From Escherichia coli (GTDB lineage: Bacteria; Pseudomonadota; Gammaproteobacteria; Enterobacterales; Enterobacteriaceae): a DNA stretch of 64,000 nt. The translations under genes and the position numbers were made by a program. The notes below the pieces were generated by a model. It was given only the letters and a program-made list of their open reading frames with translations, ran no database searches and was not told the DNA's origin. The DNA is taken from the NCBI RefSeq assembly GCF_045037415.1, contig NZ_CP173438.1. One strand, given 5' to 3'. Every line of letters starts with the position of its first letter. Position 1 is the first letter of the stretch. Positions 9,971-52,702 of the stretch are shown in pieces.

Positions 9971-10642
9971 TTAGCCTCTGATGATTTTAAGCGCCCATGC
10001 GCCACTCATAATGACCAGCAGCACCAGACACATACCAAAAGCCAGCATACAAGCCTGAGCCATATTCATAAAATGCCATGGTGGTAGCAGATACCAGCCT
10101 TCAGATTGCTGATACATTTCCACAAACCACTGTTGCGTGCTGCTCAGTGTGACGCCATCAGGAACGATTGGTGCGTCATAGCCACAATCCCCGGTAGGCT
10201 TGAACCAATTTGGTGCCCACTGTGCCAGCGGCAGGTTAAAGGGAAAAGTGGGATCGGTAGAGCAACCCTGTACGCCAAACAGTGAATCGGGATCCGGATT
10301 ATGTACTGCATGGTGGATATCGTTCAGTTTGAGCGAAAACTTCAGTCCCAAAATGCTGCCGTAAAATGCCATCACGCAGCCAATTAGCTTGAGGATGATG
10401 TTCTTTGGATTGATCGCTGCAACCAATCCTCCAATCACCATCACAAACATGGCGTAGCGAATGTATACACATTGCTCACAGGGTGCCATGTAGAGATAGA
10501 TCTGGAAGAAAGAGTGCGCCAGGATAATTAACGTGCCCATCGCAACGGCCATTAACAACCACAACAAGCGTTGCTCCTGCCATCTGACCAGTGTGTCAAC
10601 TGGTGATGTGCGAAGATCTTTCCACATTCCCTTAATACCCAT
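9971..10642 (-). CDS. dsbI: DsbB-like membrane disulfide oxidoreductase DsbI, 223 aa
   Basis: Polytopic membrane protein with a CEQC pair in the first periplasmic loop and a large C-terminal domain; partner of dsbL and assT. Confidence 0.8.
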
Positions 10643-10656
10643 AGCCTGTTTCCCTG

Positions 10657-11325
10657 TTATTTGCTTGCTAACTCACGGATAAGGTCTGCCATCGCGTCGA
10701 TGGATTTGATGCTCTTGGTGTAGATCAAGTACTTACCATTAACGACATAGGCTGGAACCCCCTGGATTTTGGCGACATCATAAGAGGCTTTCCATTTTTC
10801 CAGTGTTTCTTGAACTGCTGGTTCTTTCAGTGCCGCTTCAAAATCCGCCTGACTCATACCTGCGGCATCCAGACCAGTTTTGATAAAGGCAGCGGGATCT
10901 TTACCGTCAGACCAGCGTTCTTTTTTGTCGTGATAAGCCGCGTAGTAGGCAAACTTGGCTTTCTTAAACTGAGAGTTAGCATCAAATAAGGAAATGCCTG
11001 CTGCTTTATCTTTATTGATCAAGACCGCAAAGACTTCGCTTGCTTGTTTGCCGTATTCACCTTTGGTTTCCAGATGGAACGGCGTGAAAGCAACGATATC
11101 TTTCACTTTTTCCGATACCGGACCGGTAACCGCTTTGTCGTACTTGTAACAGAACGGGCAGGCGTAGCTAAATACCTTAATCAGCGTTTTGTCGGCATTC
11201 GGAATAGGTTTTTCCAGAACCATGTAATCCGTGCCTTCGGTAAATGCAGAAGCGGTAAATGAAACAGCCAAAGCTGCGGTAAGCAGTATGGTTTTAAATA
11301 GTGATGAGATCCCTAATTTCGACAT
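10657..11325 (-). CDS. dsbL: Periplasmic thiol:disulfide oxidoreductase DsbL (DsbA paralogue), 222 aa
   Basis: Signal peptide plus thioredoxin-fold active site CPFC (..[14 protein letters not shown]..). Confidence 0.85.
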
Positions 11326-11342
11326 TTTTATTCCCTTCTTAA

Positions 11343-13139
11343 TTATTTGAACATCTGTTGTGGACGGACTAACAGTGCACGATAGTGAGTCTGATTGGGT
11401 TTATCTGACAGCACGTCGATTTCCACTTTCACTTCTTTGGTTTTGTAATCGATTTCGTTCAACTTACCGATGGTTGGCTGCCCGACATCGAACAAATGAA
11501 TAGAACCACCGAAGCCAAACATGGTGTTACGGTCGGCTTGATATTCAATGATGGAGGTAATCGGGCTATAGAAATCGTAGCCACGTTCTTTACCGTATTC
11601 CCACACTTGCTGAACGGTGCCTTTCTTCTCATCAATCTTATATTCCACAAAGCGGGAGTATTTCATGGTTGGTAAGGCAGGTTGTTCCAGATGACGCCCA
11701 TCGCCATTATCAAAAATGGTGAGCGTTCCTTTGCTGGAAATCCAGGCGGTATGCTGGGTGTAGGTAAAGTCGAAGTCTGAGTTTTCGCACAGGCCATTTT
11801 CGTTACAGGTAATTGGCTTACCGTTAGCATCAACCGGTTTCAGCAGCTTGCTGGCCAGCGGTTTTTCCCAACCTTTAGAGGGCGCAAGGATCCATTTCAC
11901 TTGCTTATCACGACCAATCTTCACAACACCCTGGTGGCGAGAGGAGAGGATGATAGAGTCATCTTTTGCGTCATAGGCGATAGAGTTCACGTGCGCCCAG
12001 TTGCGGCCTGGCCCTACACCCAGCGCGTCGCCGAACGGTGTATCTGGTTCCAGTTTTGCCTGTTGTCCTGCATGGGCAAGGTCAACGTTAACGCAAACTG
12101 CACCTGCATCCAGCGCGCCGAGCAGTGCATCGCGTTTCGGATCGAGGATCTTGGTCAGATCCCATACATCGACAACGCGACCAGATTTATCGACTTCGAG
12201 GATATGGTCACGAATGGTGGTGACGTGTACGCCGTCATCGCGACGATAGTTACTCTTACCTACGCGCAACAGTACCGTGCCATTTGGCGTCTCAATGGAC
12301 TCATGAGTGGCGTCAGCAAATCCGCGCGGTAGTTTGTGATCTTCGAGCACCTGCCCCATCATGTCGAACTCGTACCAGTGCTGACCTTGTACAGCGGTAA
12401 AGGTGCCGCGTGGCGTTTCACGGATACCCATCAGATAACCACGTTTGTTAATGTTGCGGTCACGACCATCGTAGAAGGTGTTTTGATCCAACCACCAGCG
12501 GTATTCGCCTTCCGTATCGACGATAAAGGTGAATGGCGCGATATCAAAAGGGAGTGCGCCAGTTGCCGGACCCGCATCAAGGATACCGGCATTTTTATCT
12601 TTCTCACCATGCCAGTGGAGATCGGAACCTTGGGCGGTAAAGGTGTGGGTATTAACCAGATAGAGGCGATCTTCAAAACCTGGCGCGACTTTAACGACTT
12701 TGGTTTGCTGTAGGTCGGAGATGGAGCGGTTATCCATGTAATTGTTGACGATGGCGGAAGTCTGCACCACGTAATCATCTTTCATGGCCTTACCGTTTTC
12801 TTTCCACTCAACGGTCACTTTGTTCGCAAACTTCTGGTAAAGACCAAAAATCGGTACACCATCGTAAGTTTTCAGTGACTCGTTGCCCACTTTATAGCTG
12901 ATGTCAACGCCTTTTTCGCCCTTCCCGTGGACGGTAACTTTGACGTCAGAAATAACATGGCTGTCTAAATCAACCAGCGCGGTTAAGGGCGCATTACCGT
13001 AGGGATCGACGATAATCGCCCCAAGCTGCCCGGCAGGCGGTGCTGGTTTAAAACCCGCAGCCATCACCCCCGATGCTGACAAACCCAGGGTTATCGCCAC
13101 AGTTCCGGCTACGAGTGTTTTTCTATATTTATCAAACAT
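11343..13139 (-). CDS. assT: Periplasmic arylsulfate sulfotransferase AssT, 598 aa
   Basis: 598-aa secreted protein (signal peptide MFDKYRKTLVAGTVAITLGLSASGVMA) with beta-propeller-like composition; operon partner of dsbL/dsbI as described for uropathogenic E. coli. Confidence 0.8.
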   Translation of the reverse strand: MFDKYRKTLVAGTVAITLGLSASGVMAAGFKPAPPAGQLGAIIVDPYGNAPLTALVDLDSHVISDVKVTVHGKGEKGVDISYKVGNESLKTYDGVPIFGLYQKFANKVTVEWKENGKAMKDDYVVQTSAIVNNYMDNRSISDLQQTKVVKVAPGFEDRLYLVNTHTFTAQGSDLHWHGEKDKNAGILDAGPATGALPFDIAPFTFIVDTEGEYRWWLDQNTFYDGRDRNINKRGYLMGIRETPRGTFTAVQGQHWYEFDMMGQVLEDHKLPRGFADATHESIETPNGTVLLRVGKSNYRRDDGVHVTTIRDHILEVDKSGRVVDVWDLTKILDPKRDALLGALDAGAVCVNVDLAHAGQQAKLEPDTPFGDALGVGPGRNWAHVNSIAYDAKDDSIILSSRHQGVVKIGRDKQVKWILAPSKGWEKPLASKLLKPVDANGKPITCNENGLCENSDFDFTYTQHTAWISSKGTLTIFDNGDGRHLEQPALPTMKYSRFVEYKIDEKKGTVQQVWEYGKERGYDFYSPITSIIEYQADRNTMFGFGGSIHLFDVGQPTIGKLNEIDYKTKEVKVEIDVLSDKPNQTHYRALLVRPQQMFK

Positions 13140-21764: not shown

Positions 21765-23906
21765 TCAAAATTCCATTTTCACCGTGAATTGCACTTCACG
21801 CGGATCGCCAATCTGATTCCCCAGATTATTTGTGGCGATGGAAGAGGTGTAATACGTTTTATCAAACAGGTTTTTGACGTTTAATTGCAGTGTGACCGGA
21901 TACTGCAATTTCATTTTGTATGCGGCGAAGGCATCGGCAACAAAATAGCCTGGCAGATAATAGTCAGCCCCATTGGTTGCCGAACGACGGCTTACACCAT
22001 GTCCACCACCGCCAAATGTCAGCGTATTATTGCCTGGCATGTTATGAATATCATAGGTCAGGAATAGCGAACCGGTATGACGAGGAACATTCGGCAATGG
22101 TTTCCCTGCATAATCAGGATCCTCCAGAACCTTAGCATCGGTATAGCCGTAGCTGGCAATGATATTAATGTTTTCAGTTAATGCTCCCGCAAGGTCGACT
22201 TCTACCCCTCTTGAACGAACACGGCCTGCCGTTTTGGCGATGGTTTCATCACCAATACTTTCGGTATACAACACATTACGTTTATGGATATCAAACAGCG
22301 CAATATCTGCGGTGATACCATCGAATAGCTCGAATTTTGCCCCGACTTCGTAAGCATTAGATGATTCCGGTGGAAGATCGCCAATGTAGCTGGCAATTGA
22401 CGACTGCGGCATAAATGTTTGCGAATAATTGGCAAATAAGGATACCGATGGCGTCAGTTTGTAGACCAACCCCAGTTTGGGAGTCCATTGTTCATCGCGG
22501 CTGTCAGTATTGACATTAAAAGGACGGCCTTTACCCGCATACTGCGTGTAATACTGATAGCGGATCCCGGCGACGGCAATCCAGTTATCGGTCAGATAGA
22601 GTGCGTCCTGTGCATACGCTGAGTAGCTCTCCTGTTTGATCGTCTGATCACTGTCCGACGCCGAAACCGTTGTACATTTGCTGGTATTACCATAAACAGG
22701 GTTGTAAATATTGAAATCTTTAGCTTTTTTACAGCGAATCATATCTGTACGCAGAAGATCATAATATTCATATGACACCCCACCCAGAATCTCATTATAG
22801 AATCCGGCAATATCAACATTCCCTTGCAGATCCGCACGAGTAGCATGCATACGCTGGGTAGAGCCCTGAGTTGCATCAACACGCCGTGTCAGTGTTCCTG
22901 TCGTTGCATCATATGCGGTAACACGCGCCTGATTATCGCTGTATTTATCCTGGCTGTAGCTGTAATCAAAGCGTGCTGTCCACTGGCTATTGAGATGATA
23001 TTCTGCGTTGAGTTGCGCCAGATCGGACTGACCATCTGTAATATTAAACGGTTCGTCAAAACGTATTTTTCGATCAACGTTTACGGGCTGTTTCGTCGTA
23101 AGGTCGAAAATCGTTCCACGATCGAACGGAGTTTTATAGTCCCGATGGGAATAGAGCATGGTTACTGTTGCATTATCACCAAACCATGTGAGTGACGGGG
23201 CAATAAATGTACTGCGCTCTTTACCGAAGTTTCGCCAGTAATCTTCATCCTGCACTTCCCCGGTAAGGCGATACGCCAGCTGAGTGCCTTCAATGGGACC
23301 TGTGATATCAAGTTGCCCAGTGCCGCCACCAAAACTGGAGGAGGTGGCTGAAACCGAACCATGGAATGTTTTTTCCGGGCGCTTGGTCACGACGTTAATC
23401 AGTCCGCCAGGATCGAGAATGCCATACAGCGTGGAGGCCGGGCCTTTTAGCACTTCCACACGTTCTGTGGCGGCGTTGAAACTGCGAGGAAGTACGGTTC
23501 GCAGACCGTTGGTCATGATGGAGCCATCCCGGTTTGCGCCAAACCCACGGCGTACAAAGGCGTCCTGAGTTCCGCCTAATGTATTGGTCTGTACCACGTT
23601 ACTGACGTTATAAAGCGCCTCATCCAGCGTTGTCGCATTCTGGTTTTCCAGAACCTGATCGCTAACCGTATTGACCACCTGCGGGATATCCAGCATCGGC
23701 ATATCGGTTAATGTCGCCGTAGAGGTGCTCAGAGGTTGATAACCATCGGTTGCCTCAGTTGCGGTATTTGCATCTGCTGTAACAGTGATTGTTTCGCCAT
23801 CTTTGGTCGTTACAGAGTCTGTTGCATGAATCATCGGTGCCGCAAAAAGCAGTGAAAAGAGCGCCCGACCTTTGAGTCCTGAGAATGAAGGTGTGAACAT
23901 AGCCAT
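21765..23906 (-). CDS. TonB-dependent outer-membrane siderophore receptor (fit-locus FitA-like), 713 aa
   Basis: Signal peptide, plug-domain and C-terminal beta-barrel ending ...QFTVKMEF (terminal aromatic residue); divergent from an iron-type ABC importer with a Fur-box-like site between them. Confidence 0.8.
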   Translation of the reverse strand: MAMFTPSFSGLKGRALFSLLFAAPMIHATDSVTTKDGETITVTADANTATEATDGYQPLSTSTATLTDMPMLDIPQVVNTVSDQVLENQNATTLDEALYNVSNVVQTNTLGGTQDAFVRRGFGANRDGSIMTNGLRTVLPRSFNAATERVEVLKGPASTLYGILDPGGLINVVTKRPEKTFHGSVSATSSSFGGGTGQLDITGPIEGTQLAYRLTGEVQDEDYWRNFGKERSTFIAPSLTWFGDNATVTMLYSHRDYKTPFDRGTIFDLTTKQPVNVDRKIRFDEPFNITDGQSDLAQLNAEYHLNSQWTARFDYSYSQDKYSDNQARVTAYDATTGTLTRRVDATQGSTQRMHATRADLQGNVDIAGFYNEILGGVSYEYYDLLRTDMIRCKKAKDFNIYNPVYGNTSKCTTVSASDSDQTIKQESYSAYAQDALYLTDNWIAVAGIRYQYYTQYAGKGRPFNVNTDSRDEQWTPKLGLVYKLTPSVSLFANYSQTFMPQSSIASYIGDLPPESSNAYEVGAKFELFDGITADIALFDIHKRNVLYTESIGDETIAKTAGRVRSRGVEVDLAGALTENINIIASYGYTDAKVLEDPDYAGKPLPNVPRHTGSLFLTYDIHNMPGNNTLTFGGGGHGVSRRSATNGADYYLPGYFVADAFAAYKMKLQYPVTLQLNVKNLFDKTYYTSSIATNNLGNQIGDPREVQFTVKMEF

Positions 23907-24005
23907 TTAGTCTGTTATCCCAAAAACTCGCGGATTGTCGCGAGTGAAAATTGTTTCTTATTGCTCACTAAGCACTATCCGTTTGTTATTTCGCCATCGG
24001 ATATG

Positions 24006-24024
24006 TAATTGAGAATCATTCAAT
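24006..24024. promoter_or_regulatory. Candidate Fur box in the divergent promoter region between the receptor and the ABC importer operon
   Basis: TAATTGAGAATCATTCAAT resembles the Fur consensus GATAATGATAATCATTATC (about 11/19, core GAGAATCATTC); AT-rich intergenic region. Confidence 0.45.
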
Positions 24025-24279
24025 CACGCAGTAATGTAGTAGTAAATGAGAAATAACAAAAAATTGCTACATGTGTTTTTATGAAAGGTTTATACAATTT
24101 GATTGCTTTTAATTTATTGATATTTAATGTTTTTATTTTTATGTATAAAAATATTTTACCTGTTATTTACCTTGTTTTTGTGTGGCTTTTAACTGCTTGA
24201 CTACTACATTTTGTGGCGTCAAACTCTCAAAGGAGAATGAGTTTTATTTTTGTTTGTCTTTGATTAAGTTGGCGTACAC

Positions 24280-25089
24280 GTGGCACATAACGCAAAAGGG
24301 CAGGGGCTGATCCTCGACAATGTTTCTGCCGGGTATCACAAGAAAATCATTGTTGATGGTGTTTCTTTCTCCGTTCCCACAGAAAAAATGACCGTTCTGG
24401 TTGGGGCAAACGGCTGTGGAAAGTCGACGTTGCTCAGCACCATTGCACGTATCTTGCAACCTATGGGCGGTTCGATATTGCTTGATGGCAAAGCGATTCA
24501 CGAGCAACCAACGAAAGCGTTATCCCGTAGACTTGGGATCTTGCCGCAGTCGCCATTATTGCCGGAGGGCTTAACCGTTTATGAACTGGTGTCGCGTGGG
24601 CGTTTTCCCTGGCAAAATTTCATACGTCAATGGAGCGACGCCGATGAGCAGGCGGTGGAAGAGGCCCTGAAATTAACCGGTACGCAGGAGTTTGCACATT
24701 TACCTGTTGAAAAACTCTCTGGTGGGCAGCGCCAGCGTTGCTGGATTGCGATGGTGTTGGCGCAAAAGACGCCTTATATCCTGCTGGATGAACCCACAAC
24801 CTGGCTTGATTTACGTTATCAGGTTGAAATTCTTGAGTTATTACATGATTTAACGCGTCATCACGGGCGTACAGTCGTCGTGGTGTTGCATGATCTGAAT
24901 TTTGCCGTCAATTATGGCGATACGTTGATATTTTTACGCCAGGGGAAAGTGGTGCGTGTGTTGAATGAGGGGGAGCATTGCACGCCTGAACTGGTAAAAG
25001 CTGTCTTTGACGTTGATGTTCACGCATCAATAAATCCTCTGACGGGAAAGCCGTTCTTCATGCCGTTTCGTGGTGTAGAAAAAGTATGA
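24280..25089 (+). CDS. ABC transporter ATP-binding protein (iron-siderophore/FecE-like), 269 aa, GTG start
   Basis: Walker A GANGCGKST, ABC signature LSGGQRQR, Walker B ILLDEPT. Confidence 0.85.
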   Translation: MAHNAKGQGLILDNVSAGYHKKIIVDGVSFSVPTEKMTVLVGANGCGKSTLLSTIARILQPMGGSILLDGKAIHEQPTKALSRRLGILPQSPLLPEGLTVYELVSRGRFPWQNFIRQWSDADEQAVEEALKLTGTQEFAHLPVEKLSGGQRQRCWIAMVLAQKTPYILLDEPTTWLDLRYQVEILELLHDLTRHHGRTVVVVLHDLNFAVNYGDTLIFLRQGKVVRVLNEGEHCTPELVKAVFDVDVHASINPLTGKPFFMPFRGVEKV

Positions 25090-26069
25090 TGCGCACAGGG
25101 CTGGTTACTGTAATTTTCCTCGCCTTACTGCTGGTGGGATGCGTGGTATATCCAGGGATTGGTGCCCGATTTATTGCACCACAAACGGTGTTGCAGGCAT
25201 TTCTTCATTTTGATCCGCAAAACTTCGATCACAACGTAATTGTAAGACTCCGTTTGCCGCGTTTAGCGGCAGCATTGCTTACCGGTGCTTCTCTTGGTGT
25301 TGCTGGTGCTTTGTTGCAGGCTGTCATTCGTAACCCATTGGGGGAACCACATATTTTAGGCTTAAATGCCGGAGCCGCTCTTGCTGTCGTTGCCGCCAGT
25401 GCGCTTGGACTGGCCTTTCCGGTTGGACGCCCACTGCTGGCATCTACGGGGGGCGCGTTATTGTTCCTGTTGATATTGCTGCTTTCCTCCGCAGGGCGTT
25501 CAGGGTTAACGCCAATGAAAGTTACTTTATGCGGCGTGGCGCTATCGGCGTTCGTGTCCTCAATAACGGCTGCAATCCTGATTCTTGACGAACAAACACT
25601 GCTGGCGATGCGGACATGGCTAGCAGGTGATTTAGCGGGGCAGGATTGGGCGACGCTGGGTACGTCCGCCTGGTTTTCTCTGGGGGGATTTGTGTTAGCC
25701 CTTTACCTTGCACCCTCCCTTAACATGTTGGCACTGGGCGATCGCATGGCGCAGGGGCTGGGCGTCTCTGTACTCCGCACGCGAACATTCACCCTGCTTG
25801 CGATCGCGTTGCTCTGTGGCGCAGCCGTATCGATTGCTGGCCCCATTGGTTTTGTCGGCCTGCTAGTACCGCAGATTGTCCGGCGTCTGGTATCAGCGGA
25901 TCTGCGCGTTCTGCTCCCTCTTTCAGCTTGTGTCGGCGCGCTTTTGTTATTACTGGCAGATATTATTGCCCGGACGCTTTTCACGCCCCATGAGTTAGCG
26001 ACCGGTGTCATGACGGCGTTAGTTGGTGCGCCTGTTTTTGTCATTATGGCGACGAGGATGTTCAAATGA
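25086..26069 (+). CDS. ABC transporter permease (FecCD family), 327 aa
   Basis: Polytopic hydrophobic protein; start overlaps the ATPase stop (translational coupling). Confidence 0.85.
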   Translation: MMRTGLVTVIFLALLLVGCVVYPGIGARFIAPQTVLQAFLHFDPQNFDHNVIVRLRLPRLAAALLTGASLGVAGALLQAVIRNPLGEPHILGLNAGAALAVVAASALGLAFPVGRPLLASTGGALLFLLILLLSSAGRSGLTPMKVTLCGVALSAFVSSITAAILILDEQTLLAMRTWLAGDLAGQDWATLGTSAWFSLGGFVLALYLAPSLNMLALGDRMAQGLGVSVLRTRTFTLLAIALLCGAAVSIAGPIGFVGLLVPQIVRRLVSADLRVLLPLSACVGALLLLLADIIARTLFTPHELATGVMTALVGAPVFVIMATRMFK

Positions 26070-27115
26070 GTCGGATAATGAACGTCGGGCTACGCCCACT
26101 ACGTGTTGGTAAGTTTTCGACACTGGTGCGCCCTAAAAATCTGCTGTTGCTTGGTGGGCTGTTCCTGCTTGCGGTTGGAATACTGATATTCGGTCTGATG
26201 CAGGGTTCTTTCTCTGTTCCGGCATCGGAAGTAGGACGAGCGTTGTTTGCTCCAGAAAACGTAAGCACAGACGCACGTTATATTGTGCAGGATATTCGCT
26301 TGCCGAGAGTCATCATGGCATTGCTATGCGGGGCCATGTTAGGTATGGCAGGGGCCGCAATGCAATCCATTGCACGTAACGGCCTTGCCGATCCTGGTTT
26401 AATCGGCGTCAAAGAAGGATGTAGCGTGGCTGTGCTGTGGCTGATTTTCCAGTTTCCAATGCTGGGAATGTTCTGGCGTCCAGTGGCTGGTCTTGCTGGT
26501 GGCCTGTTGGTGGCTTTAATCGTGATTTTTTGTGCGCGCGATATTTCCCGCCCGCGATTTGTTCTGATTGGTATTGGTGTTTCCTGGTTTTTCGCCGCCG
26601 GTATCGGTGTATTTATGACCACTGCAGATGTTCGAGATGTACAAACTGCATTGATGTGGTTATCGGGAAGCCTGCATGCAGCTAACTGGATGTTAGTCGG
26701 TATTTCAGCCTGTTGGATGTTGCCAGCCGCTCTTTTATTGCTGTTCACCGCCAGGACTGCGGATATCGCTCTGCTTGGTCATCAGGTTGCAACCGGGTTA
26801 GGGGTGAATAGTTCTCGTCTGGCGTTGTTACGTGTCGCCGCACCCATAATCCTGACAGCCGTCTGCGTTTCGTGTGTTGGTAACATCGGTTTTGTCGGAT
26901 TGATAGCACCCCATATATCACGTTTTATTCTACGTGGCGGGCAGACGACATTACTGCTGGGGAGCGCGGTATCGGGGGCGTTGTTAGTTATTCTGGCGGA
27001 TAGCATTGGTCGTTTGGCTTTTTTGCCTTTGCAACTGCCTGCCGGAATCATTATCTCACTGATTGGTGGACCATTTTTTTTACTACTGCTCTGGCAGCGC
27101 AGGAACAGTTTTTAA
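26066..27115 (+). CDS. ABC transporter permease (FecCD family), 349 aa
   Basis: Second FecCD-type permease; start overlaps the preceding stop. Confidence 0.85.
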   Translation: MSRIMNVGLRPLRVGKFSTLVRPKNLLLLGGLFLLAVGILIFGLMQGSFSVPASEVGRALFAPENVSTDARYIVQDIRLPRVIMALLCGAMLGMAGAAMQSIARNGLADPGLIGVKEGCSVAVLWLIFQFPMLGMFWRPVAGLAGGLLVALIVIFCARDISRPRFVLIGIGVSWFFAAGIGVFMTTADVRDVQTALMWLSGSLHAANWMLVGISACWMLPAALLLLFTARTADIALLGHQVATGLGVNSSRLALLRVAAPIILTAVCVSCVGNIGFVGLIAPHISRFILRGGQTTLLLGSAVSGALLVILADSIGRLAFLPLQLPAGIIISLIGGPFFLLLLWQRRNSF

Positions 27116-27125
27116 CGGGAGTTAT

Positions 27126-28073
27126 ATGCGTTTATTTTTTTCTCTGCTGATACTGTTGTCATTTTTTTCCCGTGCAACAGAACCTGTTCAGGTATTTACT
27201 GATGATTTAGGGCGCAAAGTCACTGTTCCTGCTCATCCAAAGAGAATTGTCTCTTTACACGATCTTGATATCACTATTCCTCTGATTGAGCTCGGTGTAC
27301 CTCCTGTCGCCAGCCACGGGCGAACTCGGCCTGACGGTAGCCATTTCATTCGATCTGGCGCGTTATTGACAGGTGTCGACTTTGATAATTCATCGATCGC
27401 CTTTATTGGTACCGCTGATATTGATATTGAAGCGATTGTGGCGGCAAAGCCTGACTTGATCATCACAGAACCGACCCGTAATACGCCCATTGAACAACTT
27501 GAAAAAATTGCGCCCACGGTGAGCATTGATCATCTCAAAGGGGGCGCGCCAGAAATCTATCGCAAGCTGGCAGAACTTACAGGAACGCAGTCGCAGCTGG
27601 CGATACTTGAACGCCGCTATCAGGCACAAATCAATGCGCTGAAGGCGACGCTGGACAGCCAAAAAATAACGGTATCGGTGATTCAGGCAAACCAGGGAAA
27701 AATTAATGTGATGCATAGCTATCATTCGCTGGGACGGGTATTACGCGATGCTGGTTTTCGTTTTCCGCCGCTGATTGAGAGCATTCCTGAAGGTGGGCGA
27801 ATGGATGTGAGCGCGGAGCGTTTACCTGAACTGGATGCCGATTTTGTTTTTGCAACCTGGCGCGGTGACACCGGTGGTAAACCTCAGGATGAGCTGGCAG
27901 CAATGGAAAAAGTCATGCCGGGATGGTGTCAGTTTCTGACTGCCTGTCGTTCCGGGCGTTATGTGCTGATTTCTCGTGAAGAGGCAATTTCTAACTCCTT
28001 TGCATCTCTGGGGCTGATGGCTGCGCAGATACAATCACAAATTGCAGGGCGACCTCTACCGGAGGCTAAATGA
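27126..28073 (+). CDS. Periplasmic iron-siderophore binding protein (FhuD/FecB-like), about 315 aa
   Basis: ORF 27063..28073; start chosen at the ATG preceded by GGGAG; signal peptide MRLFFSLLILLSFFSRA; class III SBP-like composition. Confidence 0.8.
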   Translation: MRLFFSLLILLSFFSRATEPVQVFTDDLGRKVTVPAHPKRIVSLHDLDITIPLIELGVPPVASHGRTRPDGSHFIRSGALLTGVDFDNSSIAFIGTADIDIEAIVAAKPDLIITEPTRNTPIEQLEKIAPTVSIDHLKGGAPEIYRKLAELTGTQSQLAILERRYQAQINALKATLDSQKITVSVIQANQGKINVMHSYHSLGRVLRDAGFRFPPLIESIPEGGRMDVSAERLPELDADFVFATWRGDTGGKPQDELAAMEKVMPGWCQFLTACRSGRYVLISREEAISNSFASLGLMAAQIQSQIAGRPLPEAK

Positions 28074-28957
28074 TCCAGAAAGATAAAGTGCGGGTTGATA
28101 TTTTTGGTGAGCGTTTTCGCACTCGCGCGAGTCAGTTAACGCCTGGGTTAAGAGTTGTCGCCAGCTACATTAATGAGCATCGTGAAGTGGTACTCGAGCA
28201 AACGGCGATGGAAATTGCGGCCACGTTGAACACTTCCGATGCCACAGTTATCAGGGCTATACAGGCCCTGGGGTTTGCCGGGCTGCGTGATCTGAAACGC
28301 ACTCTGGAACAGTGGCTTGGTCCAGCCCTTAGTTCCAGCGAAAAGATGTCTACGACGGTGAGTAACTTGACGAGCGATGTTAACACCGCAATCGACTTTG
28401 TTCTTGAAGGGCATTTGTATACCTGTAATGTCCTGTCAGAGCCTGAAAACCGCCACGCGCTTGCGCAAGCTGTAGCGTTGTTGGTGCAGGCACGGCAAGT
28501 CGCAATTTTTGGCATTGGCGCTTCGGGTATTCTGGCGGACTATACCGCACGACTATTCAACCGCATAGGTTTGCCTGCCACGGCACTAAACCGTACGGGT
28601 ATTGGCCTTGCCGAGCAACTGATCGCGCTTCAACGTGGCGATGTTCTGATCATGATGGCGCAAAAATCTGCGCACCGGGAAGGGCTGACAACGCTTCGTG
28701 AGGCGAGGCGGCTGGGGATCCCTGTTATTTTGCTGACAAACGCGCTGGATTCACGTTTTAGCAAAGACGCCAGTATCGTGATTCATGTTCCGCGCGGGGA
28801 TGAAAAAGGGAAAACGCCGCTACATGGTACGGTATTGTTGTGTCTGGAAATGATTGTCTGGTCGGTAGCTTCCGCAGTGCCGCAGCGTGCGGTTAAAACC
28901 ATTAAGCGAATTAACGATTTCCATCGAGGACTGAAAACGGGAAGAAAGAATGGCTAA
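28070..28957 (+). CDS. RpiR/MurR-family transcriptional regulator (HTH plus SIS domain; fit-locus FitR-like), 295 aa
   Basis: N-terminal HTH (..EIAATLNTSDATVIRAIQALGF..) and C-terminal SIS-type sugar-phosphate binding region; start overlaps the binding-protein stop. Confidence 0.8.
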   Translation: MIQKDKVRVDIFGERFRTRASQLTPGLRVVASYINEHREVVLEQTAMEIAATLNTSDATVIRAIQALGFAGLRDLKRTLEQWLGPALSSSEKMSTTVSNLTSDVNTAIDFVLEGHLYTCNVLSEPENRHALAQAVALLVQARQVAIFGIGASGILADYTARLFNRIGLPATALNRTGIGLAEQLIALQRGDVLIMMAQKSAHREGLTTLREARRLGIPVILLTNALDSRFSKDASIVIHVPRGDEKGKTPLHGTVLLCLEMIVWSVASAVPQRAVKTIKRINDFHRGLKTGRKNG

Positions 28958-29928: not shown

Positions 29929-30178
29929 TTTTTTAACCTCAAGGTGAGACGTTTGCCGACTATAGTACGTCACAGAGCGGTACGGTGAAATTAGCAAAAT
30001 GTGCAAAGTCTTTTGCGAATTTAGCAAAAGTCTGATCTTTCTCTGATTCACCGATGCGGGATAAATATTTTCTGAAAATGACAATACTTAAATCAACTTC
30101 CCATAAGCTCCCACAGGAGAGATGTATTATGCAAATGATACAGGAGTTTTTCGGAAAAAATGATTATGGAGAATATAT

Positions 30179-30658
30179 ATGTCAAATATGATATACTTAT
30201 CAATTAAAGGGAAAATACAAGGTTTGATCTCTGAGGGTTGTGGTTCGTATGCATCTATTGGTAATAAATATCAAATAAATCATGTGGATGAAATTTTTGT
30301 TTTACAGTTCGACCATTCTTTAAGTCGAGAGTATAATGTAGTGCATCACCCCATAAAATTTTACAAGCCAATAGATAAATCCTCCCCTTTATTAAATGCC
30401 GCTCTTTCTGAAAATGAAGAGTTATCAGCTGTATTTAATTTTTATAGAATTAATTCTGGCGGTTGTATTGAAAGGTTTTACACAATTGAATTGCAAGGAG
30501 CACATTTATCGAATATTCTGACATGTTATCCACACTCAATTACACATGCGGGTAATCAGCCGGAAGAGGTCATTGTTCTTAATTATAAAAATATAACATG
30601 GAAGCACCATATCGCGAGTACGGAATCATATAGTTGTTGGGAAGAAAGGATTTTTTAA
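30179..30658 (+). CDS. hcp: Orphan Hcp-family protein (type VI secretion tube/cargo-carrier family), 159 aa
   Basis: Product MSNMIYLSIKGKIQG...HHPIKFYKPIDKSSPLLNAAL...FNFYRINSGG...VIVLNYKNITWKHH... follows the conserved Hcp pattern; AT-rich; no other T6SS core genes in the window. Confidence 0.75.
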   Translation: MSNMIYLSIKGKIQGLISEGCGSYASIGNKYQINHVDEIFVLQFDHSLSREYNVVHHPIKFYKPIDKSSPLLNAALSENEELSAVFNFYRINSGGCIERFYTIELQGAHLSNILTCYPHSITHAGNQPEEVIVLNYKNITWKHHIASTESYSCWEERIF

Positions 30659-30660
30659 AT

Positions 30661-31371
30661 ATGAAAAGCGATCTCACTATAAAAAATAGATATTGTACAA
30701 TTCCACAAGCGAAGTTCCGTAAATGGGATGAAATGGACGTTTTACTCTGGAAGTTAGGAAAAAATGATTCGCGTCGCCGTTCAGGAGTATATTATTTAAA
30801 TGCTTATAAAGATGCATATGTACAATATAATAGAGACAAAATAATTAAATATGCATACGCCGCTGGAATTCGTCCAGAGTTACTGGGCGGCGTGGCCTGG
30901 ATTGAGTCAGGAGGTATGCCTGAAAATTATAAGTTTCAGATATATGAAACAAAAAGAATGATCGGATTGTTAGATATGCCTGAAAATAAAACATCATTTG
31001 GCTCAATGGGTATACAAATACGAACCGCAGCGATTACTCTAGGTCTAGACCCTTCAGAATTAACTACCAGAAATCAGTTAGAGTTAGCGACATGCCTAAT
31101 GGAGGATGATTTTACCTTTCAAATTGCTGCTACTTATTTAAGAGATCTTGTTCTTTTTGATTATCCCTCTTCGGCAACACTGTATATGACGAATGAGCAG
31201 TATATTATGGCTGGTATTAGATATAATCGTGGTGTTGAACGAGATTTGGGTTTTTTTATTTGTTTAATTAATAATTTGCCTGCACGTGATACAGATGATT
31301 ATAAATTCATCTCTTATGGTATGAGGTTGTTAGAGATTAGAGAACATATCAAAAAATTGATTAATGAGTAA
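30661..31371 (+). CDS. Putative Hcp-associated effector with lytic-transglycosylase (SLT / lysozyme-like) motifs, 236 aa, no signal peptide
   Basis: ATG preceded by AAGGA, 2 nt after the hcp stop. Ordered motifs: E82-S83 (WIESGG), G117-I-Q-I120 with TAA (SMGIQIRTAA), A157-T-Y-L160 (QIAATYLRDL), Y188-N-R-G191 (GIRYNRG). AT-rich. Confidence 0.6.
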   Translation: MKSDLTIKNRYCTIPQAKFRKWDEMDVLLWKLGKNDSRRRSGVYYLNAYKDAYVQYNRDKIIKYAYAAGIRPELLGGVAWIESGGMPENYKFQIYETKRMIGLLDMPENKTSFGSMGIQIRTAAITLGLDPSELTTRNQLELATCLMEDDFTFQIAATYLRDLVLFDYPSSATLYMTNEQYIMAGIRYNRGVERDLGFFICLINNLPARDTDDYKFISYGMRLLEIREHIKKLINE

Positions 31372-31377
31372 TCAGAT

Positions 31378-31710
31378 ATGTTAAAAAAACAACTACTATC
31401 AATATTTGAAGCACTATTATATATAATGCTTACTTATTGGTTAATAGATTCTTTTTTTGCTTTCAATAAGTATGACTGGATGCTTGAGTCGGGAGACAAT
31501 ATTTGCAGTATACCTTCTGTTTCAGGCGAAGATCGTATATTACAAGCAATGATTGCAGCATTTTTTCTTCTGACACCACTTATTATTCTTATCTTAAGAA
31601 AACTCTTTATGCGGGAAATGTTCGAGTTTTGGCTATATGTATTCTCGCTCGTTATTTGTCTGGGTTGTGGTTGGTGGCTTTTTTGGGGACGGTTTATATT
31701 TTGCTATTAG
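31378..31710 (+). CDS. ygiZ: Small polytopic inner-membrane protein YgiZ, 110 aa; candidate cognate immunity protein
   Basis: Starts 6 nt after the effector stop on the same strand; three predicted TM helices; matches YgiZ in size and in position next to qseC. Confidence 0.7.
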   Translation: MLKKQLLSIFEALLYIMLTYWLIDSFFAFNKYDWMLESGDNICSIPSVSGEDRILQAMIAAFFLLTPLIILILRKLFMREMFEFWLYVFSLVICLGCGWWLFWGRFIFCY

Positions 31711-31755
31711 TAAAGTCTATGAGAGTCGTTTTAACGGCTCTCATAGACAGAGAAG

Positions 31756-51467: not shown

Positions 51468-51725
51468 TCATTCTGCGTACATACGCAAGCAGCGCAGGCA
51501 GTCGAAATAGTCCTGTGCATCAAGACGCGTATTGGCTCTGTTAGCTTCGGATTTGGCAGCATAGATTTGTGGGCGTAATGCTTTCATATCCTGCTCAAGC
51601 CGGGCGATTTTGGCATTTAATGTTTGCACATTGCTCGCCAGCTGATTGATCTTTTGCTCATTGACGCAGCCACTGAGCAAGCAGGTTGCCAGAACAACAG
51701 CTCCCACGGTGAAAATCGTTTTCAT
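51468..51725 (-). CDS. yqhH: Lpp-like outer-membrane lipoprotein YqhH, 85 aa
   Basis: Lipobox LLSGC then a coiled-coil heptad region resembling Braun lipoprotein. Confidence 0.85.
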
Positions 51726-51775: not shown

Positions 51776-52702
51776 TCATTGTTTTAATCTGGCGGCGGTT
51801 TTTGCCTCAATCTGCTTAAGTAGGCTGCCGCTGTTCGGGCGGATAAAATCAGCGATTTCCCACTTACCTTCGCGCCGCTGTAAAATCAGTTCTTGCTCTT
51901 CGTTGTTGCCATTGGTCAGCGTAAAGCGAACATGAATGCGGGCGGAATCGGTGGTTTTCTCCAGGACTCGAATTTCATCAACGCGTGAAAATAACGACTC
52001 TTCGCCAAAACAGATCGGATTGTCGTAAATAAATTGCCGTTCTATTGGCATATCTTCATCGGGATTGTTGGCCGTCTTGAAGGTGGTTTTATAGAAGGCA
52101 TTGACCGCCTGGCGGTAAGAGTCGGAAACCACCCACGTCCACGGCCAGCTATAATCAGCAATATGTTCAAAGAGTTCGGCAACAAAGGCTTCCGGCTGTT
52201 CTTTTTGCAACGAAGCTATAGCGGCCAGTGTTTTTTCATTCTCGCTATTAACCGCTTGTAAGACGCTGCCATGATTGCTGACAATATCGTCAATGACCCA
52301 ACGACCATTTTCCGCCACCATTTTCAGTGTCTGCGAGGTCTTTTCTTTATCGTCTTGAAAGATACGAAAGCGCACAATGGCATCGGCATGATCGGCGTCA
52401 GTTTGGGTTATCGCTACGCTTTCTAACACCAGATCGCCAAAATCCTGACAATCACAAACCGGATCATAATCCAGCCAGCCAATATTGCCCGGCAGCGTAA
52501 GATTGTCGTTCAGGGTAAGCGCCTGTTGAATACGCGCAGAAGTTATCGCTCGCTCTCCGGTTTCACCAAAATAAGGGGCAGTGGCATCTGATTTATAGTT
52601 CTGATAAATATGCCGGACTGTTTGTTCTACGGTCTGTGAGGGGGGCTGTGCGTGTACGGTAAAACTTGCCAGGGCTGCTAAAAACAGAAGTATTATTTTC
52701 AT
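51776..52702 (-). CDS. yqhG: DUF3828 periplasmic protein YqhG, 308 aa
   Basis: Signal peptide MKIILLFLAALASFTVHA; position between yqhH and dkgA. Confidence 0.8.
   Translation of the reverse strand: MKIILLFLAALASFTVHAQPPSQTVEQTVRHIYQNYKSDATAPYFGETGERAITSARIQQALTLNDNLTLPGNIGWLDYDPVCDCQDFGDLVLESVAITQTDADHADAIVRFRIFQDDKEKTSQTLKMVAENGRWVIDDIVSNHGSVLQAVNSENEKTLAAIASLQKEQPEAFVAELFEHIADYSWPWTWVVSDSYRQAVNAFYKTTFKTANNPDEDMPIERQFIYDNPICFGEESLFSRVDEIRVLEKTTDSARIHVRFTLTNGNNEEQELILQRREGKWEIADFIRPNSGSLLKQIEAKTAARLKQ

Follow-up and report, generated by a model that had tools for sequence, protein, structure and literature searches.

Why does ygiZ, a gene that stands alone between two housekeeping genes in Escherichia coli K-12, directly follow a type VI secretion system (T6SS) tube gene and a putative effector gene in other strains? 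The locus analysed here lies in a 64,000-nt stretch of E. coli DNA (RefSeq assembly GCF_045037415.1, contig NZ_CP173438.1; hereafter the window), in which hcp, the putative effector gene and ygiZ follow one another on the same strand between mdaB and qseC (Table 1). An original prediction, made from the sequence of the window alone, held that YgiZ may be the immunity protein of this effector and that it persists as an orphan in strains lacking the Hcp-effector pair. On the evidence below, we propose with a probability of roughly 0.78 that the three genes constitute a T6SS "hcp island" module with YgiZ as the cognate immunity protein. K-12 still has genes to which no function has been assigned; ygiZ is among them, and this reading gives it a specific, testable role.

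The same three genes recur well beyond the window. In seven genera, and down to an identity of ~40%, a gene of the DUF2645 family, to which YgiZ belongs, comes −4 to +6 nt after each effector homologue that was examined, and the linkage of the effector to hcp is likewise kept in seven genera. The products vary little in size (Hcp, 159 residues; effector, 236–240; DUF2645 protein, 108–113). In Citrobacter the triplet occupies the orthologous mdaB/qseC locus with the same 2-nt and 6-nt spacings (locus L018 included), in Pectobacterium it lies between pagP and an EamA gene, in Serratia fonticola it is on a 75-kb plasmid, and in Rahnella it is on a megaplasmid, with an effector that is only 40% identical. 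It is also present in Pseudocitrobacter, Chania, Serratia sp. H1w and Pectobacterium zantedeschiae, and a plasmid of Serratia JSRIV002 carries the effector-DUF2645 pair. A word-indexed search for YgiZ homologues reached only Escherichia, Citrobacter and Salmonella, and a contig scan with two peptide patterns returned seven loci; the wider relatives were found through the neighbourhoods of effector homologues and through a DUF2645 profile search. Both families are tiny and limited to the same taxa: the homologue cluster search gave 34 effector clusters, all of them in Enterobacterales, while the profile search gave 30 DUF2645 representatives in 1.84 billion proteins. Hence, in its adjacency, co-orientation and co-inheritance with the effector, ygiZ behaves as the immunity gene of a T6SS effector-immunity pair does.

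The two proteins have also diverged together. Over nine triplet loci, the pairwise protein distances of effector and DUF2645 are closely correlated (r = 0.95, Mantel p = 2e-4), compared with r = 0.74 for Hcp and effector. Between two Serratia loci (L007 and L021), Hcp is 93% identical, the effector 66% and the DUF2645 protein 41%; therefore, the effector and DUF2645 genes have been swapped as a unit behind a conserved Hcp. DUF2645 diverges fastest, with a mean distance of 0.54 versus 0.33 for the effector. Co-divergence together with fast DUF2645 evolution is what one would expect if toxin and immunity protein are cognate.

Within E. coli, the association runs one way: the effector essentially always comes with DUF2645, and many genomes have DUF2645 but no effector. 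In a set of 5,426 complete genomes, searched at megablast sensitivity, the effector is present in 1,261 (~23%), counted as carriers of the full cassette, and ygiZ in 4,598. A further class of 3,337 genomes (~61.5%), K-12 included, has ygiZ without the effector, which is absent from all of them at this sensitivity, and 828 (~15%), O157:H7 included, have neither. The 3′ half of the effector gene is contiguous with ygiZ in 1,260 genomes, and each of the 1,260 full-length effectors has ygiZ next to it; in the lone exception, a single deletion takes the effector C-terminus and the ygiZ N-terminus together. No intact effector without ygiZ was found among these genomes. Comparing the presence of ygiZ with that of hcp and the effector across genomes had been put forward as a check on the original prediction, and the outcome is favourable to it, both here and in the seven genera described above. 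The effector falls into two identity bands, at least 99% in 891 genomes and ~97% in a separate group of 370. Among the genomes listed in the first band are those of ST131 strains, UM146, NC101 and Nissle 1917, a probiotic; the carriers include clinically dominant B2 and related lineages. In K-12 J53 the locus reads mdaB, ygiZ, qseC with nothing further between, in agreement with the original prediction, and in O157:H7 mdaB is followed directly by qseC, with window positions 30034–31755 missing.

How, then, did ygiZ come to stand alone? In ygiZ-only strains, a 131-bp sequence takes the place of hcp and the effector gene, and E. coli, Escherichia sp. E2593 and E. whittamii all carry this replacement, so that it must either date far back or have been passed on by recombination. 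In E2593, ~90 bp upstream of the orphan ygiZ are collinear with the 3′ end of the effector gene (57/87 aligned positions identical, z = 5.6, a score reached by 1/2,000 shuffles); the K-12 segment carries a further deletion relative to the E2593 version. The orphan DUF2645 gene of Serratia oryzae is accompanied by a 14-residue effector C-terminal stub (E = 0.002), and a metagenome contig (L031) has a 43-residue stub (E = 1e-5) followed by two tandem DUF2645 genes. From these alignments it appears that orphaning is an event that has happened independently at least three times (in Escherichia, in Serratia oryzae and in L031), each time leaving a stub of the effector 3′ end. Stages of decay can be seen in Citrobacter, namely a truncated hcp call (112 residues, for which tblastn nonetheless aligns 159/159 Hcp residues), a frameshifted effector and an hcp::effector deletion fusion, and all of these loci retain an intact 110-residue DUF2645 gene. 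Two further details of such loci may be recorded. In the Citrobacter-like contigs L015 and L016 (3605–4711), the deletion joins the Hcp C-terminus to effector residue ~22 (protein P0011), with the DUF2645 gene downstream intact. In L031 (2609–3351), the adjacent DUF2645 paralogues encode 117 and 116 residues and form a small orphan-immunity array.

Orphan copies have not drifted freely. Comparisons between orphans of three Escherichia lineages give a ratio of nonsynonymous to synonymous substitution rates (dN/dS) of 0.23–0.42 at dS 0.16–0.26, with every open reading frame (ORF) intact, which indicates that orphan ygiZ is under purifying selection; moreover, 3,320 of the 3,337 orphan copies span at least 80% of the gene. 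Between K-12, which has no effector gene, and the cassette, YgiZ is still 92% identical. A homologue of the cognate immunity gene is thus found where the effector is absent, and the remnants in E2593, S. oryzae and L031 point to its derivation from the full pair by effector loss. The description of K-12 ygiZ as a retained orphan is supported by the remnant that accompanies the orphan arrangement in E2593 and by the purifying selection. A promoter of its own, combined with no co-occurrence across genomes, would have spoken against the pairing. K-12 ygiZ does have a promoter (PMC3950696), which sits within the segment that replaced hcp and the effector gene, and the ygiZ of the full cassette has no consensus promoter. 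The first 8 codons of ygiZ (31378–31400 in the window versus 1848–1870 in the K-12-type locus L001) differ sharply between the two states, MLKKQLLS in the cassette and MLKQKIKT or MLKHKIQT in orphans, whereas identity over the remainder of the gene is ~96%; the breakpoint of the deletion or recombination may therefore fall a little way into ygiZ and not at the effector stop.

The classification of the effector rests on its predicted fold, because searches against Pfam, NCBIfam, PADLOC and PDB sequences gave no usable match; a weak PDB match was to phiKZ gp034 (9xps, E = 0.41). An AlphaFold2 (AF2) model was built from 25 homologues, and the best model has a predicted local distance difference test score (pLDDT) of 77 and a predicted template modelling score (pTM) of 0.77. 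Its nearest structural relatives are Slt, MltE and Tse3, a T6SS muramidase; the top Foldseek matches are all MltE, with a probability of ~1.0, and the best structural matches are all glycan-strand-cleaving enzymes. By this model, the effector has a lytic-transglycosylase/lysozyme fold with a candidate catalytic Glu, which is the kind of fold that marks the Tge effectors. Glu82 (W-I-E-S-G-G) is invariant in the 25 homologues, where it is followed by T-S-F-G-S-x-x-x-Q and R-Y-N-R-G, and it is also conserved in relatives from Rahnella, Cronobacter, Streptomyces and Nostoc. Family-1 lytic transglycosylases have the motif order E-S, G-x-x-Q, Y-N-x-G, and by analogy with it Glu82 is the candidate catalytic residue. 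The effector has no signal peptide and no transmembrane (TM) or hydrophobic segment; therefore, it would need the T6SS to reach a periplasm. It matches phrog_11932 (unknown function; E = 5.7e-28, residues 9–196), and tblastn against 50,697 phage genomes gave no match. We regard it as the founding member of a putative new T6SS effector family of ~34 clusters, without a Pfam family, that occurs in B2 and related lineages.

Relatives of the toxin domain extend further. On a plasmid of Streptomyces sp. NBC_01201 (L037, 1694–3387), it forms the C-terminus of a 460-residue polymorphic-toxin-like protein, with a small helical protein encoded before it and a 103-residue multi-TM protein (two to three hydrophobic segments) after it. 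On a plasmid of Nostoc sp. HK-01 (L036, 1–3148), it forms the C-terminus of a protein of ~1,490 residues. A Cronobacter effector of 36% identity precedes a three-TM protein of 98 residues that is not recognisably DUF2645.

YgiZ was described in the original prediction as almost entirely membrane-embedded. This holds for its three hydrophobic helices (AF2 residues 2–27, 48–77 and 81–102, pLDDT 79) but overlooks a conserved extramembrane loop of ~20–25 residues. Counted over 16 family members, the N-terminus and loop 2 carry a mean of 5.4 Lys and Arg in ~17 residues, whereas loop 1 (residues 30–54), which contains the best-conserved motif of the family (N-K-Y-D-W-M...C-S-I-P), carries a mean of 1.9 Lys and Arg and 4.0 Asp and Glu. 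Following the positive-inside rule, loop 1 and the C-terminal tail are therefore predicted to be periplasmic. Y32, W34, M35 and C43 are invariant in the 16 sequences, and two cysteines, Cys43 of loop 1 and Cys109 of the tail, do not vary even in distant DUF2645 members, consistent with what is probably a periplasmic Cys43-Cys109 disulfide. YgiZ has no signal-peptide or lipobox architecture and is not of the soluble or lipoprotein Tgi type. The accompanying caveat, that immunity to peptidoglycan-targeting effectors is usually periplasmic or lipoprotein-borne, is thus softened by the predicted periplasmic acidic loop and its cysteines, the periplasm being the compartment in which an effector that cuts peptidoglycan would work, although a polytopic immunity protein against a glycosidase-fold effector is still unusual.

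From these elements the following mechanism can be put together. The effector, presumably carried by its dedicated Hcp, would be injected into the periplasm of a neighbouring cell and, if the modelled fold is a guide, would cut the glycan strands of peptidoglycan. YgiZ would be an inner-membrane protein whose N-terminus is cytoplasmic and whose acidic loop (~30–54) lies on the periplasmic face, probably stapled to the C-terminal tail by the Cys43-Cys109 disulfide. This loop would bind or occlude the incoming effector at the membrane surface, so that sister cells are protected. On the line of descent to most non-B2 E. coli, E. whittamii and a cryptic Escherichia clade, a deletion would then have taken hcp and the effector gene apart from its final ~90 bp; ygiZ would have been kept, would have gained its own H-NS-silenced, BglJ-RcsB-activated promoter and would persist as an orphan immunity gene whose role may be protection against the ~23% of E. 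coli that still have the effector.

Several observations weigh against this proposal. The effector fold comes from one AF2 model, the other four having pLDDT values of 54–63, and Pfam SLT gives no useful E-value anywhere in the effector family, the best being E = 1.1 for the Streptomyces relative. The known immunity proteins against T6SS peptidoglycan glycosidases (Tsi3/Tgi) are not polytopic: they are either soluble in the periplasm or lipoproteins. The orientation of the YgiZ loop is predicted from the positive-inside rule and the cysteine pattern only. As for K-12, a search of its 131-bp segment for a remnant of hcp or the effector gene gave no significant result (z = 1.06), its YgiZ carries D40G at a nearly invariant loop position, and the gene is activated by BglJ-RcsB but silenced by H-NS under laboratory conditions (PMC3950696); given this silencing and D40G, protection of K-12 against the B2 effector is uncertain.

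Four other explanations were weighed. The polytopic form of the immunity protein would be explained if the effector, rather than being a bulk peptidoglycan hydrolase, worked at the membrane surface, its target being, for example, lipid-II-linked or nascent glycan strands or the membrane itself. Each member of the toxin family that was examined is paired with a protein of ~100 residues and two to three TM segments, even where this is not DUF2645 (Cronobacter, Streptomyces), and both the soluble or lipid-anchored nature of the known Tgi/Tsi3 proteins and the failure to detect Pfam SLT fit such a target; nevertheless, with structural matches that are all glycan-strand cleavers, a conserved Glu in the family-1 motif order and no hydrophobic segment, we consider this variant unlikely. 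It is more doubtful still that orphan ygiZ is a decaying relic which gives no protection and persists by being small and silent. The H-NS silencing and D40G of K-12, the 828 genomes without the gene and the truncated or fused forms that occur in Shigella would suit a relic, but the orphan arrangement is found in three Escherichia species or clades with intact 110-codon ORFs and the dN/dS values given above, nearly all orphan copies are close to full length, and K-12 has a dedicated, regulated promoter. Purifying selection weakens the relic explanation, least so for K-12 specifically.

That YgiZ is a general envelope or stress membrane protein, beside which hcp and the effector gene landed by chance, has very little to recommend it. 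Overexpression of ygiZ does improve sabinene tolerance and cell morphology in BL21 (PMC7181518), and the gene belongs to the BglJ-RcsB regulon and is far commoner in E. coli than the effector; chance, however, does not readily produce adjacency in seven genera, at unrelated loci and on plasmids, between partners that co-diverge (r = 0.95), are swapped as a pair, form tiny families in the same taxa and leave orphans with effector stubs. We give even less credence to an endolysin-holin-like lysis or release pair, the thought behind which is that a lysozyme-fold enzyme beside a three-TM protein of ~110 residues, with a phrog_11932 match, resembles a phage lysis cassette. Here the enzyme gene precedes that of the membrane protein, and both stand behind a T6SS hcp, outside any phage context; YgiZ ends in a hydrophobic ...GRFIFCY and has no charged cytoplasmic C-terminal tail; T7-driven overexpression of ygiZ is not lethal and even improves growth under solvent stress (PMC7181518); and ygiZ has long been retained without the enzyme, which itself is not found in the phage genomes searched. 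YgiZ as a phage holin was rejected on its non-toxic overexpression, its hydrophobic C-terminus, its position behind hcp and the lack of any match when it was searched against PHROG.

Table 1. Features of the mdaB-qseC interval in the window, in window coordinates.
Feature	Position	Strand	Description	Basis or remark
hcp/tssD	30179-30658	+	159 aa T6SS tube protein, orphan	presumed effector carrier
Putative Hcp-borne cargo effector	30661-31371	+	236 aa	predicted lytic-transglycosylase/lysozyme-like fold
Effector Glu82 codon	30904-30906	+	candidate catalytic Glu	motif W-I-E-[STVA]-G-G
Effector gene 3′ end	31283-31377	+	degenerate collinear copy upstream of orphan ygiZ	Escherichia sp. E2593
ygiZ	31378-31710	+	110 aa (intact 110-codon ORF), DUF2645; three-TM inner-membrane protein	putative cognate immunity protein
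ygiZ codons 30-54	31465-31539	+	acidic conserved loop N-K-Y-D-W-M-L-E-x-G-D-x-I-C-S-I-P, including invariant Cys43	predicted periplasmic, putative effector-binding
hcp + effector segment	30107-31367		replaced by 131-bp sequence in ygiZ-only strains	blastn, K-12-type locus L001 versus window
AT-rich island between mdaB and qseC	30034-31755			GC profile; blastn versus O157:H7 empty site L002

The layout of the cassette in the window agrees with the original prediction: ORF coordinates bear out the 6-nt spacing, on the same strand, between the effector stop (TAA, 31369–31371) and the ygiZ ATG, and the GC profile places ygiZ within the AT-rich composition of the cassette. GC content is 0.29–0.40 over ~30100–31600, against ~0.45–0.56 in the flanks, and blastn against the O157:H7 empty site puts the breakpoints of the ~1.7-kb island at 30033/30034 and 31755/31756. 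A gap of 2 nt separates hcp from the effector ATG at 30661. No consensus promoter or terminator was found between hcp, the effector gene and ygiZ by a scan that is crude and could have missed an internal ygiZ promoter. The hcp product matches TIGR03344 TssD (E = 5.5e-59) as well as Hcp structures in the PDB (down to E = 2e-20) and is named "Hcp family type VI secretion system effector" in RefSeq, and the ygiZ product matches Pfam DUF2645 (PF10840, E = 7.8e-11, residues 13–109). In RefSeq genomes that are 99.9% identical over the region, the latter gene is named ygiZ and its product "DUF2645 family protein", while the 236-codon gene is a "hypothetical protein" without functional annotation.

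Beyond ygiZ, the 45-bp gap between the convergent ygiZ and qseC genes contains an inverted repeat, ATGAGAGTCG-TTTTAA-CGGCTCTCAT, at 31721–31746, which may be a terminator shared by the two genes; the terminator scan missed it because it has no T-run. Upstream of the hcp cassette, other accessory clusters are found in the window. A chaperone-usher fimbrial operon and a dsbI-dsbL-assT (arylsulfate sulfotransferase) cluster occupy 2438–7410 and 9971–13139, respectively. An island between parE and ygiN (21765–28957) encodes a TonB-dependent siderophore receptor, a FecCD-type ABC transporter and an RpiR regulator. Its transporter and regulator genes also occur in O157:H7 and Escherichia sp. E2593, where the compared loci stop short of the receptor, and the island is absent from the K-12-type locus, in which ygiN directly follows parE.

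If the proposal is correct, E. coli would comprise three predicted groups: strains both armed and immune (23%), strains with immunity alone (61%) and strains without protection (15%, O157:H7 among them). Such a division would predict which strains can kill which others in the gut. Nissle-type strains, for example, would have a ygiZ-dependent advantage over O157:H7 and none over K-12-like commensals. The unusual architecture of the immunity protein may also show where such cell-wall toxins act. The pairing of the toxin domain with a partner of ~100 residues and two to three TM segments, from Enterobacterales hcp islands to Streptomyces polymorphic toxins, would imply that the target is membrane-proximal, nascent or lipid-linked peptidoglycan and not the mature sacculus. 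Carried to its end, this suggests that DUF2645 is a new class of polytopic inner-membrane immunity proteins, in which a disulfide-stapled acidic loop neutralises a toxin of lytic-transglycosylase fold on the outer surface of the cytoplasmic membrane. We offer this extension, together with its regulatory part in K-12, as speculation that has perhaps an outside chance of being right.

The regulatory part concerns a second gene of the window, yqhG (51776–52702, − strand; its neighbour yqhH is at 51468–51725, − strand). In RefSeq its product carries the name "YqhG/Tai3 family protein", in which Tai3 denotes a family of immunity proteins against T6SS amidases; a search of YqhG against NCBIfam gave no Tai3 match. 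In K-12, yqhG is likewise H-NS-silenced and BglJ-RcsB-activated (PMC3950696). With both genes under this control, one regulon may hold two orphan T6SS immunity genes, and, if the extended reading were true, K-12 ygiZ and the Tai3-like yqhG would belong to an RcsB-dependent, default-silent regulon that switches on stored immunity genes.

No link of ygiZ or DUF2645 to the T6SS, and no account of the effector family, was found in the literature on ygiZ, DUF2645, orphan hcp genes and orphan immunity. The "orphan hcp2B" of avian pathogenic E. coli was considered as the same locus and rejected, the hcp2B paper being concerned with a different hcp-vgrG operon. The nearest known counterparts are the T6SS glycoside-hydrolase effector-immunity pairs of Pseudomonas, Tse3/Tsi3 (Tge1/Tgi1) and Tge2/Tgi2. 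By sequence, the effector described here could not be related to the Tge families, to Pfam SLT or to any PDB chain, YgiZ is a three-TM inner-membrane protein whereas Tgi proteins are soluble periplasmic proteins or lipoproteins, and the cassette sits behind an orphan hcp. In form, YgiZ resembles the small inner-membrane proteins that confer immunity to pore-forming colicins (E1, Ia and A types) or to pore-forming T6SS effectors (Psi1, for example; PMC9796082), which have ~110 residues, three to four TM segments and a gene adjacent to that of the toxin. No sequence relationship to these proteins was found, and they act in the bilayer on membrane-inserting toxins, while the effector here has no hydrophobic segment and a predicted glycosidase fold. 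Like ygiZ in K-12, yqhG is a conserved E. coli gene with no adjacent effector, which bears a T6SS-immunity family name (Tai3, by RefSeq name only); unlike ygiZ, it has a different fold and family and is not multi-TM.

In organisation, the module resembles the hcp islands of Pantoea and Erwinia (PMC9796082), with which it shares the layout of hcp, cargo effector and immunity gene, as well as the occurrence of orphan immunity arrays. There, and likewise in Vibrio cholerae with its orphan immunity arrays, the immunity gene outlasts an effector that is lost or replaced, and the tandem DUF2645 genes of L031 are alike in this respect. The E. coli island differs from the Pantoea and Erwinia islands in lying outside any T6SS cluster, at the housekeeping mdaB/qseC locus, and in that ygiZ is an orphan in ~61% of E. 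coli genomes, with its own regulated promoter. Thus, effector-immunity modules behind hcp and orphan immunity genes were already known (PMC9796082, for example); what appears to be new is the link of ygiZ and DUF2645 to such a module, and the effector family itself.

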